DNA of 40,312 bases, taken from positions 1 through 40,312 of the forward strand of contig JAANXG010000076.1 in NCBI GenBank assembly GCA_018263405.1. Direction: 5' to 3'. How positions within the stretch are numbered: position 1 is the stretch's first letter; the number at the start of each line of letters is the position of its first letter. Origin of the DNA: Gammaproteobacteria bacterium (GTDB lineage: Bacteria > Pseudomonadota > Gammaproteobacteria > Arenicellales > JAANXG01). Made by a program: the position numbers and the translations under genes. Below the pieces are notes generated by a model. The model saw only the letters and a program-made list of their open reading frames with translations, was not told the origin of the DNA and ran no database searches. Positions 1-11,415 of the stretch are shown piece by piece.

Positions 1-167
1 GGTCGGAAAAGCCCCTCGCCGGCGTTACGCTCGCTTGAATTGACCGGGCCAGTCCTGCGCTCGCGTGCCTTGGCGATCGGCTTTTCCGATCCCGCTGAAC
101 GTGTGTGTATTTATGCCCAAGGGTACTAAGGCTCCTGGACCGGGGTTTTGTACGATTGGTTGGCGGC

Positions 168-2558: not shown

Positions 2559-2848
2559 GGGCGCCTTTTGTTCACGGTAATCGTCTGGAAACTCTCCCTC
2601 AAGCTTCCTCCGGATCGGTATTATCCGGCAGCTATCAACCTTTCATAAAAGCAATGTGCACAAAATTTCGGCATTCCCTCGTCGACCCATTGCCTCACAC
2701 CACATCTTAGACTATATCCGGGATCAGCAGTGGGTGTATCGGAGGATATTGTGACGGAGGTCAATATTGCATGAGGCATCGACTGTATCCAGTCGGTGTA
2801 AAACGACACCGCATATGGGCGACGCGGATATCCTTGAGTGTATTCAAT

Positions 2849-3019
2849 GTAAGTTCTCAATAACCCCGTGCAAGAATGTGGGGGTAGGGTTGTCTTTCAG
2901 GGCTGTCGAAAGCACGGAGGCTTTCGCCAGAGCGTACAGGGAGGTATCTACAGCGTCCCTGAAAGACAACCCTACCCCCACATGATCGCCGACATTGCAC
3001 GGACTTTTTGAGAAATTAC
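2849..3019 (+). mobile_element. 171-bp MITE, copy A (GTAA termini, imperfect TIRs, 8-bp TSD TATTCAAT)
   Basis: The element runs GTAAGTTCTCAA...TTGAGAAATTAC. It is flanked by identical TATTCAAT at 2841-2848 and 3020-3027. Internally, a perfect 27-bp inverted repeat (2876-2902 / 2957-2983) encloses a 54-nt loop with a nested 7-bp hairpin (cgaaagc/gctttcg). The same 171 bp recur at 11416-11586 and 35625-35795. Confidence 0.85.
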
Positions 3020-3072
3020 TATTCAATCACGTATGATTACAGCACTCCATGCCTGGAAGAGAGGAGTAAGCG

Positions 3073-3630
3073 ATGAGACGATTATTTCCGGCCCTGGCGT
3101 TCGTCGCCGGGGTCTTGGCGATGGCGGCATGGCAGCCGGCGGTAGCCGGCGGGCCGCTGGCGGAGCGTCTGGACCGAGTGGTGAGCCGCATGGACAGTTC
3201 GGACATCCGGGCGGCCGACGTGCGGGCGGTGGTCAACCGCCTCCTGCCGTTGCAAAGCTTCCACGGCGGCGTATCCGAAGAAAAGATTCACGATCTCGCC
3301 CGCGAGGCGATGCAAGGCGTGATCGATACCCGCTTGAAGCTGGCTGATGCAAAGCGTCGAGGTGTCTAGGTGGACGAAGCCTCGATCGATGATGCCTTTG
3401 CCAAGGTCGTGGCGCGCTATCCAAACCCGGAAGAGTTCCAGGCCCGCCTGAGACGAGCCGGACTGACCGAAGGCAACCTTCGCGACACGCTGCGGCGCCG
3501 TCAACTCCTCAAGAACGTGGAGGCCGCCGTCGAAGACGAGTCGTACGAGCCGACTCTGGAGGACGCCAGACGTTTCTACGCCGCAAACCCCGACCGATTC
3601 CGCGAGCCTCGTCGCGCCGCCGAAAGAGGC
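3073..3630 (+). pseudogene. SurA-N/PpiD-like periplasmic chaperone gene remnant (in-frame TAG, 3' truncated)
   Basis: RBS gaggag lies upstream of ATG 3073, and the product starts with signal peptide MRRLFPALAFVAGVLAMAAWQPAVAG. An in-frame TAG at 3367-3369 interrupts '...LKLADAKRRGV*VDEASIDDAFAKVV...', a pattern typical of SurA N-terminal domains. The same frame continues to '...RFYAANPDRFREP', where a PPIase domain would normally follow. There the frame instead runs antisense into the hemY 3' end at 3631. Confidence 0.6.
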
Positions 3631-5205
3631 CTAACGGGCTCCGCTGTCCTTCAGGTACGCCACGATCTCGTCGGCCTGATCCCAGGCCTTCTCGATGCAC
3701 GCGTTCATAGCGACACCGTAGTACGAGCTCCCGGCGACCCACAGCCCGGGGTCCGCCGCCAGCCGCTGGTGGATCCGGTCCAGCCGGCTCTGGTGGCCCA
3801 CGTGGTACTGACCGATGCCCAAGGGCCAGCGGTAGACGCGGGTCAGCACCGGCTCTGCCGTGATCCCCATGGCGTCCTCAAGATCCGTCCGAGCCTGGCG
3901 GATAAGCACGTCCTCGCCCTCCGACACCGCTGCCGGGGCGTGGGCACCGCCGATCATGCACCGCACCAGCACCCTCCCCTTGGGCGCACGGCCCGGGAAG
4001 ATCGACGAGTCCCACAGACACCCGAGGATCCGGGGCCCCTCGCCCCGGGGCACCAGGAAACCAAAGCCGTCAGCATCGGGGACATCCGCCGCGTCCCACG
4101 CCAGCGCCACCACCGCGAGACCGGCGGTATCGATAGCGGTGATCGAATCGGCCAGCGCCGGGTCGAGATTTTGGAGCAGTGGTGCTGCTCGGGGCGAGGG
4201 GATGGTCACCACGACCCCGTCGGCGGTGAGCTCCTCGCCCGAGGCAAGGCGCACGGACCACCGACGGTTCCGGGCACCCGGCTCCTTCCCCCGCTGCCCT
4301 GAGCCGGCGGAGCGCGGAAACCTGCGGGAGGCGTCCACCCCGGCCGGCGCGGTGCGCCCCGCGTCCCCGCCATCCCCCGGTCGGTCCGTCTCTGTCCGCA
4401 CCACGGCGGCCACCGGACTACCAGTCCTCACCACGCCTTCTCCGAGGGCCGCCTCCAATCCCCGGACCAGCGTATCCAGGCCATTTTGGAAGGAGGTAAG
4501 GGTGCCGCCGGGCCCCGCCGGACCACCAGGCTGGGTCAGTTCCTCCACGTCCTCGCCGCGGGCCCGGCGCACCTCGACATCCCGCTTCGCGGCCTTCCGG
4601 GCCTTCATCCGAGCGAGCATGGCCTTCACCAGCCCGCCGTGCTCCGCTTCCATCGCCGCCATCTTGGGGAAACTGCTCTGAAGGCTCAACTCGTGGATGT
4701 TGCCAGCGCAAACACCGGAGACCACGGCATCCACCAGGACCGACGCGGCTTCGGGGCCGATGCGCCGGGCGGCGAACTCGTAGATGGTCTCCTCGATGTT
4801 GGGGCGGGAGCGAGCGAAGGGTTCCGCGAAGACCCGGAGCTTGCCGACCACGCTGAGGAGCCCGCTGGTCAGGAAGCTGACGGGCCCGGTGGGCGCTTCA
4901 TGGAGGCGACCGTTCCGGTAGATGAAGCGCTTCGCCGCAGCCTCGTCAGCGGGCTGAAGCTGGTCCTCCAGGCCGACGCGACGCACCAGCTCCAGCGTTC
5001 GGGGCGCGTTGTCCAGGAACCCGTTGGGTCCGTTCTCGATGGTGTAGTCACCGGCCCGCTCGGTGCGGATGTTCCCGCCGGGCTCGGTTTCGGCCTCCAG
5101 GACCACCACCTCCACCGGCGTATCGGCGGTCTTGGACTTACCCCGGATGTTCAAGGCGGTGGTGAGGCCCGTGACCCCGCCGCCGATGATAACGACACGC
5201 TGCAT
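3631..5205 (-). CDS. hemY: HemY-type FAD-dependent protoporphyrinogen oxidase
   Basis: N-terminal dinucleotide fold 'RVVIIGGGVTGL'. Also 'GFGFLVP' and the C-terminal 'RWPLGIGQYHVGH...YYGVAMNACI', recognisably like the Myxococcus/Bacillus HemY family. ATG 5205 gives the canonical N-terminus, but upstream in-frame starts at 5229 and 5265 are possible. GC is above 70%. Confidence 0.85.
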   Translation of the reverse strand: MQRVVIIGGGVTGLTTALNIRGKSKTADTPVEVVVLEAETEPGGNIRTERAGDYTIENGPNGFLDNAPRTLELVRRVGLEDQLQPADEAAAKRFIYRNGRLHEAPTGPVSFLTSGLLSVVGKLRVFAEPFARSRPNIEETIYEFAARRIGPEAASVLVDAVVSGVCAGNIHELSLQSSFPKMAAMEAEHGGLVKAMLARMKARKAAKRDVEVRRARGEDVEELTQPGGPAGPGGTLTSFQNGLDTLVRGLEAALGEGVVRTGSPVAAVVRTETDRPGDGGDAGRTAPAGVDASRRFPRSAGSGQRGKEPGARNRRWSVRLASGEELTADGVVVTIPSPRAAPLLQNLDPALADSITAIDTAGLAVVALAWDAADVPDADGFGFLVPRGEGPRILGCLWDSSIFPGRAPKGRVLVRCMIGGAHAPAAVSEGEDVLIRQARTDLEDAMGITAEPVLTRVYRWPLGIGQYHVGHQSRLDRIHQRLAADPGLWVAGSSYYGVAMNACIEKAWDQADEIVAYLKDSGAR

Positions 5206-5266
5206 GGCTTCCGGTCGCCCGCGGGGCATGACCCCGTTCAAATCGCGCACATGGTGCGGGAACAAC

Positions 5267-5707
5267 TCAAGCAGTATGGTTGTACAGTTTGCCCTCCCGG
5301 GTCAAAGCTTGCGGGTCGGGGACAGTAACGGTATTTCGATGAAACAACGCCACCCTGTCCCGGCCCAGTTCCTTGATCGCGCGTGTAACGGATTCCGCCC
5401 GCGCGATTTCCAGGTCGGTGAGCTGCGGATGGTCGCCATGGGCGGGCATCCGGCGGATACCGTCCAAGGCGTGTTGCTTGAGCGCCGTTAAGCCCAGCGC
5501 CGCACGGTCCTCCCACGCTTCCACGTCGCCGATTTTCGGGGCGTTGTTCACCCCTGTTTCGTGGCACGCGGCGCAGATTGCTTCGGCGACTTCCTTGCCG
5601 CTCCGCTCGCCGCTCTGTGCGTCGCCCTCCTGCGGCACCATCAACATCGCGACAACAATGCCGATGAATCCCAGCGTCAAGACCTGCAGTGTTGGTAATT
5701 TAGGCAT
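5267..5707 (-). CDS. Secreted class I c-type cytochrome (cytochrome c5-like)
   Basis: Single haem-binding CXXCH motif ('CAACHETG') with a downstream 'RMPAHG' Met ligand region. N-terminal signal/TM segment is 'LQVLTLGFIGIVVAMLMV'. ATG 5707 is preceded by RBS gaggggag. The ORF track extends to 5764 without an RBS. Confidence 0.8.
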   Translation of the reverse strand: MPKLPTLQVLTLGFIGIVVAMLMVPQEGDAQSGERSGKEVAEAICAACHETGVNNAPKIGDVEAWEDRAALGLTALKQHALDGIRRMPAHGDHPQLTDLEIARAESVTRAIKELGRDRVALFHRNTVTVPDPQALTREGKLYNHTA

Positions 5708-6037
5708 GCTCCCCTCGCGGCTACGGCCATTGAGCGCGTGCTCGGGAATGGTTCCGTATGCCACTTCCGCTAGTGAATTCCGTGCAGTATAACACTACAT
5801 TCCGGACAGATAGCTTACTCGTTACAACCGGATGCCGAGTTTTTGACCTCCCGGAATAGTGCAAGTATATTCAAACCAACGTATGAATTATGGATGACAT
5901 GCCTTCATCGGTCCCGCCCTGGAGCTCAGCCGCGAGCCCTATGGGGCTGCAAGCGCCACTCGACGACCGACCTTTTCGAACTTCCTTGCACGCGGCGGCC
6001 GGCCACGCCCACTCGCCTTCATGAAAGAGGTATTCCT

Positions 6038-8542
6038 ATGTCCTGGATTGTCAGCCTGATTCTTTTGTTCGCGGGGTTAACCGCCACGACACGGCTGCGT
6101 CTGTCGTTGCTTACCTGGACCGTTATCTTCGGTGCGGGTTTGCTGTTGTTGAGCGTGACCGGCCTGTTGCCTGCACTCCTGGCTCTGATCGTGTGGCCGC
6201 TGTTCATCGTCATGGCTCTGTTCAACTTCACCACGCTGCGCCAGAAATACCTCAGCACGCCGATGCTGCAGTACATGCAGAAGGTGTTACCGCCCATCTC
6301 CGAGACCGAGCGGCAGGCCATCGAGGCCGGGACAACCTGGTGGGAAGCGGACTTGTTCCAGGGTAATCCGAATTACGAGAAGCTGTTGAGCGTGCCCGAA
6401 CCGGGATTGAGCGGGGAAGAGCAGGCCTACATGGACGGTCCGGTGGAAAATTTATGCGCCATGCTCGACGATTGGCAGATTTCGCACGAACTGCAGGACC
6501 TGCCCAGGGAAGTCTGGGAGTTTTTGGCGCGGGAGCGATTCTGGGCGATCAACATCCCCAAGCAATACGGCGGCCTGGAGTTTTCAGCCGAGGCTAATTC
6601 GGCCATTGTCACGAAGATCGGCACCCGCAGCGGCACCGCTGCGGTGACGGTGATGGTGCCGAATTCATTGGGGCCTGCCGAACTACTCCTCGATTACGGC
6701 ACCCGGGAGCAGAAGGATTATTACCTGCCGCGCCTGGCGGCCGGGGACGAGATTCCCTGTTTCGGGCTCACCAACCCCTGGGCGGGCTCGGATGCCGGTT
6801 CCATTCCCGATCACGGCGTCGTGTGCAAGGGGGAGTACCGGGGCGAGGAAGTACTGGGCCTCCGGCTGAACTGGGAAAAACGTTACATTACGCTGGGTCC
6901 GGTCGCCACGCTGCTGGGGCTGGCATTCAAGGCCTACGATCCGGACCGCCTTCTCGGCGGGGAAGATGTCCTCGGTATCACCTGCGCCCTGATTCCCACG
7001 GACCTCGAAGGGGTGAGGACCGGCGAGCGCCACTACCCGATGGACGGGCAATTCCAGAACGGACCGAACTACGGCCACGATGTGTTCATTCCCTTGAAGT
7101 TTGTGATCGGTGGTGAGGAGCGGGTCGGAAAGGGCTGGCGGATGCTGATGGAATCGCTGGCCGTGGGGCGGGCGATCTCGCTGCCGGCGTCGGGCACGGC
7201 GGCAGCCAAGTTGAGTGCGCGTACCACCGGTGCTTATGCGCGAATCCGCGAGCAGTTCGGCATTCCGATCGGCAAGTTCGAGGGAGTTCAGGAAGCGCTG
7301 GCCCGTATCGGCGGTCTCACCTATATGATGGACGCGGGGCGCCTGCTGACGACATCGGCGTTGAAATTAGGCGAGAGGCCGAGCGTCATTACGGCCATTT
7401 TGAAGTATCACCTCACCGAGAATGCGAGGACGGTGGTCAACGATGCCATGGATATACACGGCGGACGGGGGATCTGCCGGGGCCCGGCTAACTATCTCGC
7501 GCAGGCCTACACGCAACTACCCATTCTCATCACCGTCGAGGGGGCGAACATCCTGACGCGCAGCATGATGATTTTCGGCCAGGGTTCGATGCGTTGCCAT
7601 CCATACCTGCTGGACGAGATCAAGTTCGCGCAGTCGGAGATCGACGCCACGGTTCGCGATGACTTTGACGAAACGCTGACGAACCATATCGGCTATACCG
7701 CCATGAACGGCATCAAATCCGTCGTTTACGGTGTGAGCGGTTCGCGGCTTGCGCCGGGGGGGGACGGCCCAATGGACAGTTATTACCGTCAGTTCGCCCG
7801 GTACAGCGCGTCGTTCGCGCTGTTGGCGGATATTACGCTCCTTATGCTGGGCGGCGAATTTAAACGCAAGGAGAGTTTGTCCGCTCGTTTCGGCGATGCC
7901 TTGAGCCACATGTATCTGGGCACCGCTTCATTGAAGCGCTTCAAGGACCACGGCGAAATCGAGGCCGATCGGCCGCTGGCGGAATGGGCCTGCCGGCACA
8001 GCCTGCATCGGATACAGATCGCATTGGACGGTATATTGCGTAATTTTCCGGTTCGGTCGCTCGCTGTCCTGTTGCGGGGTGTCGTGTTTCCGCTCGGCCG
8101 GTGCCGGCACGAACCGAGTGACAGACTCGGCCACCAGGTGGCGGAGTTGCTGCTGGAGCCTTCCGAGTCGCGTGACCGGCTCACGGCGGGTATAGATCGG
8201 AAGAGCACGTCAGACGACGTCACCGGCTCGCTGGAGGATGCCTTGGGCAAAGTAGTGCAAGCCGAACCCCTGCTAAAGAAGCTGAAAGAGCAGGGCCACC
8301 GTTTCGAACCCGCGCCGGATAACGCGTATACGGACTGGGTCGATGAATTGGTCAGCGAGGAGCTCATCTCCCGGAGCGAGGCCGAGGTTCTGAGGGCGGC
8401 CCGCGACGCAACACTGAGAGTGATCGCCGTGGACGATTTCCCGCCGCATACCACGCTGAGCGGCAGGGAGACCGGGACTTCCCATGAGGACAACGGAGGT
8501 AGCGGAGACGACCAAGGCGGCGACGGCGACGAAGCCGCCTGA
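6038..8542 (+). CDS. fadE: Acyl-CoA dehydrogenase, large membrane-associated FadE type
   Basis: Collinear with E. coli FadE along its whole length, e.g. 'ERQAIEAGTTWWEADLFQG', 'NSLGPAELLLDYGT.EQKDYYLPRLA', 'EGANILTRSMMIFGQGSMRCHPY'. ATG 6038 is preceded by aaagagg. The ORF-track start at 5843 adds 65 non-homologous residues. Confidence 0.95.
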   Translation: MSWIVSLILLFAGLTATTRLRLSLLTWTVIFGAGLLLLSVTGLLPALLALIVWPLFIVMALFNFTTLRQKYLSTPMLQYMQKVLPPISETERQAIEAGTTWWEADLFQGNPNYEKLLSVPEPGLSGEEQAYMDGPVENLCAMLDDWQISHELQDLPREVWEFLARERFWAINIPKQYGGLEFSAEANSAIVTKIGTRSGTAAVTVMVPNSLGPAELLLDYGTREQKDYYLPRLAAGDEIPCFGLTNPWAGSDAGSIPDHGVVCKGEYRGEEVLGLRLNWEKRYITLGPVATLLGLAFKAYDPDRLLGGEDVLGITCALIPTDLEGVRTGERHYPMDGQFQNGPNYGHDVFIPLKFVIGGEERVGKGWRMLMESLAVGRAISLPASGTAAAKLSARTTGAYARIREQFGIPIGKFEGVQEALARIGGLTYMMDAGRLLTTSALKLGERPSVITAILKYHLTENARTVVNDAMDIHGGRGICRGPANYLAQAYTQLPILITVEGANILTRSMMIFGQGSMRCHPYLLDEIKFAQSEIDATVRDDFDETLTNHIGYTAMNGIKSVVYGVSGSRLAPGGDGPMDSYYRQFARYSASFALLADITLLMLGGEFKRKESLSARFGDALSHMYLGTASLKRFKDHGEIEADRPLAEWACRHSLHRIQIALDGILRNFPVRSLAVLLRGVVFPLGRCRHEPSDRLGHQVAELLLEPSESRDRLTAGIDRKSTSDDVTGSLEDALGKVVQAEPLLKKLKEQGHRFEPAPDNAYTDWVDELVSEELISRSEAEVLRAARDATLRVIAVDDFPPHTTLSGRETGTSHEDNGGSGDDQGGDGDEAA

Positions 8543-8545
8543 TCC

Positions 8546-10417
8546 GTGGAGACCGTAGCCGGAATCTATCCGGAAGACGCGTTGGCCGGACGCGGCGATC
8601 TGGACGTGATCGATCCGGATGTCGCCCCGACTCTGGACGCGCAGTTCGCCGAGCGGGTGCGCCGAAGCGGCCGGGAATCCGCGTATATCGAATACGATGA
8701 ATCGACGGAGCAATGGGTTCACTACACCTGGGATGAGACGGCGCGTGAAGTGCGCCGCTGGCAAGCGGCGTTCGAGCGGGAAGGTCTGCAAAAGGGTGAC
8801 CGGGTCGCGCTGCGCTTGCGCAACTGCCGGCACTGGGTGATTTTCGACCAAGCGGCCCTCGGTCTGGGCTTGGTCGTCGTGCCCCTTTACGCCGCCGACC
8901 GCCCGGATAACGTCAATTACGTACTCGATCATTCCGACGCCGTGTTGGTTCTGGTGTCGAACAACGAAGCCTGGACCGAACTGCATCGCGCCCAAGGCGA
9001 AACGCCCAGGATCAAGCGCATCGTGGTGCTGGAGGGACAATCCGAAGGCGAGTATGTCAGGCACGTGGATGACTGGCTGGGGAACAGCGATCGCGACGCA
9101 CTGGCAAGCGGTATCGCCGCGCGGGACGATTTAGCCAGCATTGTCTACACCTCGGGTACGACGGGACGCCCCAAGGGCGTCAAACTGTCGCACCGCAACA
9201 TGGTCTGTAACGCCTACAGCGGATTGCGCAGCGTGGCGGTTGACCATGAGGCTTTGTTCCTTTCATTTCTGCCTTTATCGCACACGCTCGAACGTACGGT
9301 GGGTTACTACGTTCCGGTGATGGCCGGCGCGAAGGTTGCGTACAACCGGTCGCTCAAACAATTGTCGGCCGATCTGCTTGCGGTGCGCCCCACCGGAATC
9401 GTTACCGTGCCGAAAATATTCGAGCACAGCTACCGTACGATCAAGGATCGATTGTCCGAAGCGCCGGTGCTCAAGCGGTGGTTGTTCAACGCCGCGGTCC
9501 GTATCGGCTGGAATCGCTTTGAGTATCGGCAGGGCAGAGGGCCATGGGACCTGTCGTTTCTGGCATGGCCGCTTTTCGATAAGCTCGTAGCGAAGAAGAT
9601 ACGGGACAAGCTGGGTGGCCGGTTGAGCATGGCCGTGGTGGGCGGTGCGCCGTGTACATTGGCTGTTTCGAGAGTGTTTATTGCCATGGAAATCATGATA
9701 CTCCAGGGCTACGGTTTGACCGAAAGCAGTCCGAGTATCGCCATCAATACGCTGGGTCGGAATCGTCCCGATACCGTCGGATTACCGCTGCATGGTGTGG
9801 AAGTCAGAGTTGGAAACAACGATGAACTGCTGGCACGGGGTCCCAACATCATGATGGGTTACTGGAAGGACGATGAAGCGACGCGGAAAGTGTTGACCGA
9901 TGAGGGCTGGCTGCACAGCGGCGACCAGGTAGAGATCGAAGACGGTTTCATTCGTATAACCGGACGTCTGAAAGACATTCTCGTTCTGGCCAATGGGGAA
10001 AAAGTGGCGCCCGCGGACATGGAAGCCGTGATTGTTGGCGATCCTTTGTTCGGCCAGGCCATGGTAGTGGGCGAGCGAATGCCTTATCTGGCTGCCTTGG
10101 TGGTGCTGGATGAAAAAGCGTGGCGGAACGCCGCAAACGAGATCGGCGTTGATCCCGGCGACGAATCGGCGTTGAAAGACAAAAAAGTCGAGGAATTCCT
10201 GCTCGAGAAAATATCCGGGTTAATCCATAAGTTTCCGGGTTACGCCCGGATTGAAAGTGTCACCGCGACGCTGACACCTTGGACCGTCGAAGACGGGCTG
10301 TTGACCCCGACTTTAAAAGTCAAGCGCCCCAAGGTGTGGGAGGTTTTCGAAGACCGGATTGAGAAAATGTACGAGGGGTATGATTTGTATCGGGTCGGGC
10401 AGCGCCAAAGCGCTTGA
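8546..10417 (+). CDS. Long-chain fatty acid--CoA ligase (AMP-forming, FAA1/COG1022 type)
   Basis: AMP-binding signature 'YTSGTTGRPKGV', plus 'GYGLTE' and the C-terminal 'TPTLKVKR'. The GTG start lies 4 nt after the fadE stop, consistent with an operon. Confidence 0.9.
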   Translation: METVAGIYPEDALAGRGDLDVIDPDVAPTLDAQFAERVRRSGRESAYIEYDESTEQWVHYTWDETAREVRRWQAAFEREGLQKGDRVALRLRNCRHWVIFDQAALGLGLVVVPLYAADRPDNVNYVLDHSDAVLVLVSNNEAWTELHRAQGETPRIKRIVVLEGQSEGEYVRHVDDWLGNSDRDALASGIAARDDLASIVYTSGTTGRPKGVKLSHRNMVCNAYSGLRSVAVDHEALFLSFLPLSHTLERTVGYYVPVMAGAKVAYNRSLKQLSADLLAVRPTGIVTVPKIFEHSYRTIKDRLSEAPVLKRWLFNAAVRIGWNRFEYRQGRGPWDLSFLAWPLFDKLVAKKIRDKLGGRLSMAVVGGAPCTLAVSRVFIAMEIMILQGYGLTESSPSIAINTLGRNRPDTVGLPLHGVEVRVGNNDELLARGPNIMMGYWKDDEATRKVLTDEGWLHSGDQVEIEDGFIRITGRLKDILVLANGEKVAPADMEAVIVGDPLFGQAMVVGERMPYLAALVVLDEKAWRNAANEIGVDPGDESALKDKKVEEFLLEKISGLIHKFPGYARIESVTATLTPWTVEDGLLTPTLKVKRPKVWEVFEDRIEKMYEGYDLYRVGQRQSA

Positions 10418-10468
10418 ACACGATACAGGAACCCGTCGCCGTCCCATTGAAACCGTGGAGCATATTTT

Positions 10469-11257
10469 ATGACCAGTGTCCTGACAAAAATAGATAAAGG
10501 TGTTGCGGTGGTCACGCTGAACAGGCCGGACGTTTTGAATGCCCTCAGTCCCGATATGGCCCGGACCCTGCATCATGTGCTGGTCGGGATATCGGAAGAT
10601 GAAAACGTTAGGTGTGTCGTACTCAAAGGCGCTGGTAACGGCTTTATGGCGGGCGGAGATGTAGGCTTTTTCAAGAGTGTGTTGCCGGATTTGGATGCCG
10701 GGAAGGTCGATGAGCTGGATCCGGTCTTCAAACACGTTCACGGCATTGTCGCAACGCTAAGGACCATGACGGTCCCCGTGATCGGTGTGCTGCACGGCGC
10801 CGTGGCCGGCTTCGGAGTCAGCCTCGCCGTGGCCTGCGATTTGGTCGTCGCCGCCGAAGAAACGCAGTTTACGCTTGCCTACTGCCATATCGGCACCAGC
10901 CCGGACGGCGCCAGTACGTATTTTCTCCCGCGTATCGTCGGCTTTAAAAAAGCCATGGAGCTTGCGTTGCTGGGCAACCGGTTCGATGCCCGGGAAGCCC
11001 TCGCGTTGGGTATATTGAATAAAGTGGTTCCGGCGACCGATCTCGAAGCGAGCGTGAACGAGTGGGTGCGGCGATTGCTGTCGGGGCCGAAGTTTGCCTA
11101 CGGTAAAACCAAAGCGCTGCTGTACAGCTCGCTCGATAATTCGTTCGATCGGCAGATCGAGCTCGAAGAGGAGTCGTTCAAACATTGCGCCCGGACGAGA
11201 GACTTCGCTGAAGGCGTGACAGCCTTCGTGGAAAAACGCAAAGCTGAATTTGGTTAA
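10469..11257 (+). CDS. Enoyl-CoA hydratase/isomerase (crotonase) family protein
   Basis: 262 aa. Crotonase-fold features 'VVTLNRPDVLNAL', oxyanion-hole region 'GAGNGFMAGGDV' and 'EGVTAFVEKRKAEF'. A ggag RBS precedes the ATG. Confidence 0.9.
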   Translation: MTSVLTKIDKGVAVVTLNRPDVLNALSPDMARTLHHVLVGISEDENVRCVVLKGAGNGFMAGGDVGFFKSVLPDLDAGKVDELDPVFKHVHGIVATLRTMTVPVIGVLHGAVAGFGVSLAVACDLVVAAEETQFTLAYCHIGTSPDGASTYFLPRIVGFKKAMELALLGNRFDAREALALGILNKVVPATDLEASVNEWVRRLLSGPKFAYGKTKALLYSSLDNSFDRQIELEEESFKHCARTRDFAEGVTAFVEKRKAEFG

Positions 11258-11415
11258 ACCTCCCGTGCCGGCCGGGCTGGGCCATTCACTGCGGATCGCG
11301 CCTTCCACTGGCGGCTCAGGCACGCTCTGAATGTTGCAATATCAGTGACGGGGTACACTAGCCCGGTTGTGTCAACTTGACAAATTGTTGCAATAAGCAC
11401 AGTGTTCACGCTAGC

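Follow-up and report, generated by a model that had tools for sequence, protein, structure and literature searches.

A hemY gene of probable Gemmatimonadota origin between two truncated genes upstream of fadE in an Arenicellales genome

The stretch of DNA analyzed here (hereafter, the window) covers positions 1 to 40,312 of contig JAANXG010000076.1 (C138 in our numbering), the longest contig in a metagenome-assembled genome (MAG; GenBank assembly GCA_018263405.1) of a gammaproteobacterium of the order Arenicellales. Upstream of the fadE gene, the window carries an intact hemY gene for protoporphyrinogen oxidase, which lies between a SurA-like peptidyl-prolyl isomerase (PPIase) pseudogene and a truncated gene for a class I cytochrome c (Table 1). 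An original prediction, made from the DNA sequence alone, had described positions 3073 to 5265 as a patch of foreign DNA with a high GC content. The best explanation of this locus, to which we assign a probability of about 0.85, is that hemY alone passed from a Gemmatimonadota (Longimicrobiales-like) donor to an Arenicellales gammaproteobacterium, where it resides in a variable, decaying stretch upstream of the native fadE operon.

The hemY gene and its product

The length of the HemY protein was counted from the ATG codon that matches the start of its homologues. The protein scores 300.5 bits against the equivalog model TIGR00562 (cut-off, 97.85) and is matched over its full length, in two stretches split by a variable linker. 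It contains the GxGxxG motif of the FAD-binding Rossmann fold (IIGGGVTGL, aa 6 to 14) and matches the PF13450 and PF01593 families of the amine-oxidase fold. The closest solved structure is that of the Myxococcus xanthus protoporphyrinogen oxidase (PPO; PDB 2IVD and 2IVE), which aligns over the length of HemY (with 2IVD, at residues 3 to 270 and 324 to 516). HemY is accordingly predicted to be an FAD-dependent, oxygen-dependent protoporphyrinogen IX oxidase (PgoX); it may thus act on that substrate rather than on coproporphyrinogen III (CgoX). Bearing on the choice of type are that structure, a PPO, and the gene order in the donor clade, where hemY stands beside hemE and a gene for a 473-aa HemN-type protein.

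Each member of the donor clade has, at the position of the linker, an insert of its own length and sequence, and the HMMER match splits there, so that the linker is no defect of the HemY from the window. Its linker is among the longest of the clade, with a length similar to that of protein P0007. HemY can be aligned with the clade members from end to end, its reading frame is uninterrupted, and its terminal branch in the phylogenetic tree (0.20) is like those of its neighbors (0.13 to 0.17). The C-terminal tail beyond the sequence ADEIVAYL varies within the clade. No other gene of the patch is intact.

Table 1. Features of the hemY region, with positions in the window
Feature	Position	Strand	Basis
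MITE copy A (171-bp miniature inverted-repeat transposable element, 2849-3019, with 8-bp target-site duplication)	2841-3027	.	Sequence read
SurA-like PPIase pseudogene (signal peptide and SurA_N_3 domain, 186 codons)	3073-3630	+	PF13624
Left junction zone (last SurA-homologous codon to first donor-homologous hemY base)	3628-3651	.	
hemY (protoporphyrinogen oxidase, 524 aa, intact)	3631-5205	-	TIGR00562; tree; DNA identity to donor clade
Hypervariable Gly/Arg/Pro/Ala-rich linker in HemY (~aa 271-314; 40-50 residues)	4264-4395	-	Alignment with twelve clade members
Segment of untraced source, 135 bp (61-nt spacer between cytochrome stop and hemY start, plus last 24 cytochrome codons and stop)	5206-5340	-	
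Truncated class I cytochrome c open reading frame (ORF), 146 aa	5267-5707	-	PF13442, 40.4 bits; congener alignment
Native region upstream of cytochrome c, 72 nt	5708-5779	-	Window 5397-5779 versus congener contig G002:C1, 77% DNA identity
tetR-family remnants (upstream region, 5838-5888, and piece matching TetR aa 90-111, 5901-5963)	5838-5963	+	
fadE (acyl-CoA dehydrogenase, 834 aa), native	6038-8542	+	Three congeners: 75-77% identity in DNA, 76-78% in protein

Donor lineage, extent, and base composition of the transferred DNA

In a set of 5.8 billion proteins, the best matches of HemY were 74 to 77% identical to it, and the named ones came from Longimicrobiales MAGs. Among the GTDB species genomes, close matches were found in Gemmatimonadota and then in Acidobacteriota, and none was proteobacterial. 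In a tree of 85 sequences, HemY nests within Gemmatimonadota sets with SH-aLRT supports of 95, 100, and 97, and the grouping of HemY with the HemYs of Arenicellales is rejected by the approximately unbiased (AU) test (P = 0.00036; lnL difference, 82). The phylogeny, which had been proposed as a check of foreign origin, thus places HemY in a Gemmatimonadota clade and not among close relatives. These comparisons point to the Gemmatimonadota, and within them the Longimicrobiales, as the donor lineage. The earlier impression of a myxobacterial or actinobacterial enzyme does not hold for the donor, although the closest solved structure is indeed the Myxococcus one.

The HemY from the window shares with its Longimicrobiales counterparts the family, the length class, the GGGVTG motif, and the position of the linker. 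It differs from them in the sequence of the linker, in its GC content at third codon positions (GC3, 0.85 versus 0.90 to 0.95 in the donors), and in being encoded in a gammaproteobacterial chromosome outside the hemE-hemN context of the donor. The gene order on contigs of the donor clade is hemE, hemN, and hemY and then the genes for a small membrane protein and a two-component pair; these neighbors of hemY are all absent from the window.

DNA identity to the donor hemY genes (77 to 81%) is confined to positions 3651 to 5205. The flanking segments 5206 to 5400 and 3561 to 3670 match no hemY flank in nine donor-clade loci, and the 135-bp segment next to the start of hemY has no match in the MAG or in the donor loci. 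This type of hemY has no match in the four genomes of the same genus (hereafter, congeners) and no match above 40% identity among 40 genomes of the order. None of the other genes of the donor locus has a relative with >65% identity in the MAG, which argues for the transfer of a single gene and against a set of contaminating contigs. Thus, as far as sequence comparison can tell, only the reading frame of hemY is traceably foreign. The idea of a foreign patch is borne out for hemY; its extension to the whole 2.2-kb block is not.

The GC content is 0.684 in the block from 3073 to 5265, 0.697 in hemY (3631 to 5205), and 0.651 in the SurA-like piece (3073 to 3630), and it climbs in two steps, from ~0.50 to 0.65 at position 3073 and then to 0.70 to 0.73 at ~3630. 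Among 3461 segments of 1.5 kb from the MAG (mean, 0.577; standard deviation, 0.034), the one that starts at 3501 has the highest GC content, which places the rise beyond chance. The rise had therefore been seen in the right place but was overstated: the block does not exceed 70% GC, and only 28% of its 60-nt lines reach 73%, so that the spot values of 73 to 77% reported earlier were too high. Similarly, the flanking value of 53 to 58% applies to the GGDEF-EAL gene on the left (0.538; the intergenic region 2559 to 3072 has 0.496) but is too low for fadE on the right (0.611).

The GC3 of hemY is equaled or exceeded in 6 of the 1413 long ORFs of the MAG (genome value, 0.68 ± 0.07). In tetranucleotide distance from the genome mean, hemY ranks first (z = 5.7) among 3430 equally long stretches, and its distance to the Longimicrobiales loci, 0.019 to 0.025, compares with 0.021 for an average stretch of the MAG to its own mean. 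As can be expected of a horizontally acquired gene, hemY is unlike its host in composition and resembles the donor.

Junctions and alternative histories

On the left, hemY meets the SurA-like piece, which matches the SurA_N_3 domain (PF13624, 32.7 bits versus 27.2). An in-frame TAG at positions 3367 to 3369 corresponds to codon 99, where the relatives have a sense codon. Read through this codon, the piece is 47, 38, and 41% identical to proteins of 336 to 341 aa that combine SurA_N_3 with a rotamase domain; the alignment starts at residue 4 of the relatives and runs to residue 184 or 185 of the piece, which corresponds to residues 181 to 189 of the relatives. The rotamase domain follows after residue ~190 in the relatives, and no match to it was found in the piece. 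Thus, while the signal peptide, the N-terminal chaperone domain, and the 38 to 47% identity link it to the ~340-aa PPIases of the parvulin type (relatives of SurA, PpiD, and PrsA), the absence of the rotamase domain and the nonsense codon mark it as a nonfunctional remnant of such a gene. The relatives were found by exhaustive HMMER searches, and the three closest ones that were looked up (P0126 to P0128) are encoded on contigs of <2 kb that carry no taxonomy; a word-indexed search of the 5.8-billion-protein set returned nothing at E ≤ 0.001. Readthrough of the TAG was considered as well and was dropped, as the gene is truncated anyway.

The SurA homology stops at ~3627, and the stop codon of hemY occupies positions 3631 to 3633, within the junction zone, so that the two genes meet without a spacer. 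Several claims of the original prediction, namely, two convergent genes that meet directly, a SurA-like gene both interrupted and truncated, and a recombination junction at about 3630, are hereby confirmed. Its placing of the left edge ~50 bp from a MITE is accurate as to distance (54 bp separate the end of the MITE from the SurA-like ATG), but the MITE is not the edge of foreign DNA. It is flanked by its own 8-bp target-site duplication, TATTCAAT, at positions 2841 to 2848 and 3020 to 3027, and it therefore represents an independent insertion. There are many copies of this MITE in the MAG, some of them 100% identical, and further copies in the congeners. A promoter-like site (3008 to 3037; TTGAGA, an 18-nt spacer, and TATGAT; 10 of 12 matches), whose −35 element lies inside the MITE end, faces the SurA-like pseudogene.

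On the right, the cytochrome c stump keeps the signal peptide, the CAACH motif, and the first heme domain. Its counterparts in the congeners are diheme proteins of 340 to 380 aa, to whose first domain it is 58 to 62% identical (72 to 77% at the DNA level), and the second heme (CxxCH) domain and the C-terminal domain of these orthologues are missing from it. The similarity to the congener DNA, which includes a 6-nt insertion, runs to ~5341, near codon 122, and then ends, so that the final 24 residues are novel. This upholds the suspicion that the right junction altered the 3' end of the cytochrome gene and moves the right edge from the end of the block at 5265 to somewhere between 5205 and ~5341. 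The congener diheme cytochromes (G002, G004, and G005) thus resemble the window's copy in the signal peptide, the first CxxCH domain, and the upstream DNA; in contrast, the window's copy is cut after the first domain, ends in 24 unrelated residues, and occupies another chromosomal place, as the gene is not beside fadE in the congeners. In congener G001, the second heme domain of the diheme cytochrome copy (L025, G001:C27, 7556-7879) appears frameshifted.

The intact hemY is linked to host DNA and has a truncated gene on either side, from which the following order of events can be proposed. The gene would have arrived without its donor neighbors, hemE-hemN upstream and the small membrane protein gene downstream. 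One of its ends came to abut the SurA-like gene, cut after codon 186, and the other, across 135 bp, the diheme cytochrome c gene, cut after approximately codon 122. As the junctions bear no mobile-element ends, the joints are likely to have formed by illegitimate recombination or deletion. Indeed, no integrase, insertion sequence (IS) ends, or att sites were found at the borders of hemY, and there is no repeat at 3630 or at 5205 to 5340. Capture of hemY by an integron cassette or by the MITE was also considered and dropped, since no attC-like site or element ends are present at the junctions.

Several observations weigh against this account. Even the closest donor sampled shares only 77% identity, which leaves the actual donor outside the sampled set and the transfer undated. 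The group used in the AU test was named only after the tree had been seen. HemY has substitutions at a few positions that are conserved in its clade, such as VSGVCAG for VSGVFAG. No clear promoter precedes hemY, only 2 nt separate its ATG from the Shine-Dalgarno-like GGAAG, and the stretch occurs in no RNA run. All runs with contigs across the junctions belong to a single study and represent essentially one strain. Finally, the SurA-like piece and the segment 5206 to 5340 are of untraced source, and more than one event may have been involved.

The last point leaves room for a different history, in which the whole of 3073 to ~5340 arrived as one foreign fragment, or is what remains of a larger island, from an unsampled high-GC organism that had the SurA-like gene near hemY, with the rotamase half removed by an internal deletion. 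Such a scenario is possible, if unlikely. The origin of the SurA-like piece is where the two histories part, and its signals are mixed. The 65 to 71% GC of the contigs that encode its three nearest relatives points to a foreign origin, as do its own GC content of 65%, against 57.6% for the genome, and the lack of an orthologue in the congeners, where the best matches are only 18 to 24% identical. However, six donor-clade genomes offer nothing closer than 27 to 28% identity, which points away from the hemY donor, and the convergent neighbor of hemY in four loci of that clade is the gene for the small membrane protein and not one for a PPIase. A host lineage is suggested by the GC3 of 0.72 to 0.77, which is within the host range, by the 5' end of the piece, which runs into AT-rich, host-like intergenic DNA where a host MITE has inserted, and by the best genome-level matches, up to 33% identical, in genomes of the same family. 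The surroundings of the best SurA-like genes of these genomes show no synteny with the window.

A chimera, in which Longimicrobiales reads were wrongly stitched into an Arenicellales contig during assembly or binning, is very improbable. It could be suspected from the fragmentation of the MAG, from a hemY composition that matches another phylum, and from the highly repeated MITE on the left, at which the Logan contigs break. However, the foreign piece is only ~1.6 kb long and has host DNA on either side, and neither junction contains a repeat. A single Logan contig of 8309 bp, 99.88% identical to positions 2995 to 11303 of the window, carries the SurA-like ORF, hemY, the cytochrome gene, fadE, and the acyl-CoA ligase gene, the presence of fadE anchoring the block in the host chromosome. 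Logan contigs from four runs (X1 to X4) extend over 2995 to 11303 and cover 2995 to 6100 without differences, and the depths of the block contigs track those of the left-flank contig (29/31, 43/37, 142/149, and 47/51). The MITE itself is bridged by its 8-bp duplication, as the identical 8-mers show that its two flanks were contiguous before it inserted. These contigs, made by an independent assembler, provide a junction-spanning counterpart to the read mapping that had been called for and exclude an assembly chimera. An exact 38-mer across 3610 to 3647 had no match in the JGI metagenome contigs.

Equally remote are an ancestral hemY lost from the relatives and a transfer from Arenicellales to Gemmatimonadota: HemY-type genes do occur in the order (genomes G005, G019, G021, G028, and G033, and a second copy in the MAG, on contig C54), but they form a separate clade with the C54 copy, are only 27 to 40% identical to the HemY of the window, and do not group with it in the AU test, while many Gemmatimonadota genomes keep the hemE-hemN-hemY cluster, and the composition of hemY fits that phylum.

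Expression, other protoporphyrinogen oxidases, and the host genome

Under the preferred account of a single-gene transfer, transcription of hemY would start in the native region that remains upstream of the cytochrome c gene and in which a promoter is presumed. The hemY gene lies on the same strand as the cytochrome stump, 61 nt downstream of it, with no terminator-like site between the two and no promoter-like site before hemY; this arrangement makes co-transcription probable. An active HemY would add an extra terminal enzyme of protoporphyrin synthesis beside one of the native type. The latter is encoded by the second hemY gene (C54:12600-14033), whose 477-aa product scores 230.6 bits against TIGR00562 and groups in the tree with the HemYs of genomes of the same family and order; its GC content of 0.577 is host-like.

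The four congeners encode no HemY and have hemJ instead, and hemG was found in no genome of the group. The original remark that Gammaproteobacteria tend to use HemG or HemJ is therefore correct for the relatives as regards HemJ; it does not extend to HemG, and it leaves aside the native-type hemY of the MAG. A search for hemJ (PF03653) elsewhere in the MAG, as had been suggested, did not reveal it. In the congeners, hemJ is located upstream of trmL; on contig C110 of the MAG, an IS terminus lies 26 nt upstream of trmL, and the contig ends there. Comparison of the run contigs with the congener hemJ yielded no piece at the depth of the organism, although the 80% identity floor of this search may have missed some. 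These results hint at a loss of hemJ, although the gene may merely be unassembled. Congener G001, which has neither HemY nor HemG, shows a hemJ match (C17:126134-126503) that is split in two and whose second part contains two TGA codons; either a pseudogene or an error of the assembly could account for this.

A more far-reaching reading holds that HemJ has been lost and that protoporphyrinogen oxidation now depends on HemY-type enzymes, one of them derived from Gemmatimonadota and expressed from the promoter of the truncated cytochrome c gene. We consider this quite improbable. If true, one enzyme would have been displaced by a nonhomologous one with the junctions still legible; with hemJ truly gone, the locus would be a worked example of nonorthologous displacement.

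Frequent horizontal exchange of the isofunctional protoporphyrinogen oxidases HemY, HemG, and HemJ has been inferred from their patchy distribution (Kobayashi et al. 2014, PMC4231631). Similarly to the cases in that study, the species described here has a type of the enzyme unlike the usual one of its group. It differs from them in that the recipient also has a native-type HemY and in that the sequence reveals the donor clade, the recipient genes that were damaged, and the ends of the foreign DNA (left, to within ~20 bp; right, to within ~135 bp). As an ordinary single-gene transfer between phyla into a decaying, repeat-rich region, the case adds an example and no principle, albeit an unusually well delimited one. 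Its value lies in its legibility: the donor clade is known, the foreign DNA is confined to a reading frame, both cut recipient genes can be reconstructed from congeners, and hemY sits where a host promoter could drive its expression.

The MAG has 163 contigs, a size of 1.93 Mb, and a GC content of 57.6%. The runs nearest to the window are labeled marine metagenome, and the named homologues of the native genes of the window come from Arenicellales (Gammaproteobacteria). The host genes for fadE and acyl-CoA ligase are 73 to 78% identical to genes of the four congeners. Of the 326 contig ends of the MAG, 143 consist of the 171-bp MITE or of one IS terminus. The latter closes ~47 contigs, including the start of the window (1 to 130) and C110:18016-18137, and is 90 to 94% identical to its copies in congener G003, compared to 75 to 77% for genes. 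So repeat-rich a genome fits a rearrangement-prone region. The completeness of the MAG is estimated at 77%, and the congener genomes have 4.4 to 4.7 Mb; either repeat-driven fragmentation has cost the bin much of the genome or the genome of this species is much smaller. The wealth of IS and MITE copies and of gene remnants matters to those who infer metabolism from this MAG.

The fadE gene was found in congeners G001, G003, and G004. In two of these, G001 and G003, whose upstream regions were read, it is preceded by a tetR-family gene. In the window, this gene is reduced to remnants, and the fadE-fadD operon is therefore probably without its local repressor. Over 8.3 kb, the MAG contig departs from the Logan contig only in a 19-nt part of fadE (8194 to 8212), where there are 11 differences; these reflect either sequence variation in a small patch or a local discrepancy of the assemblies.

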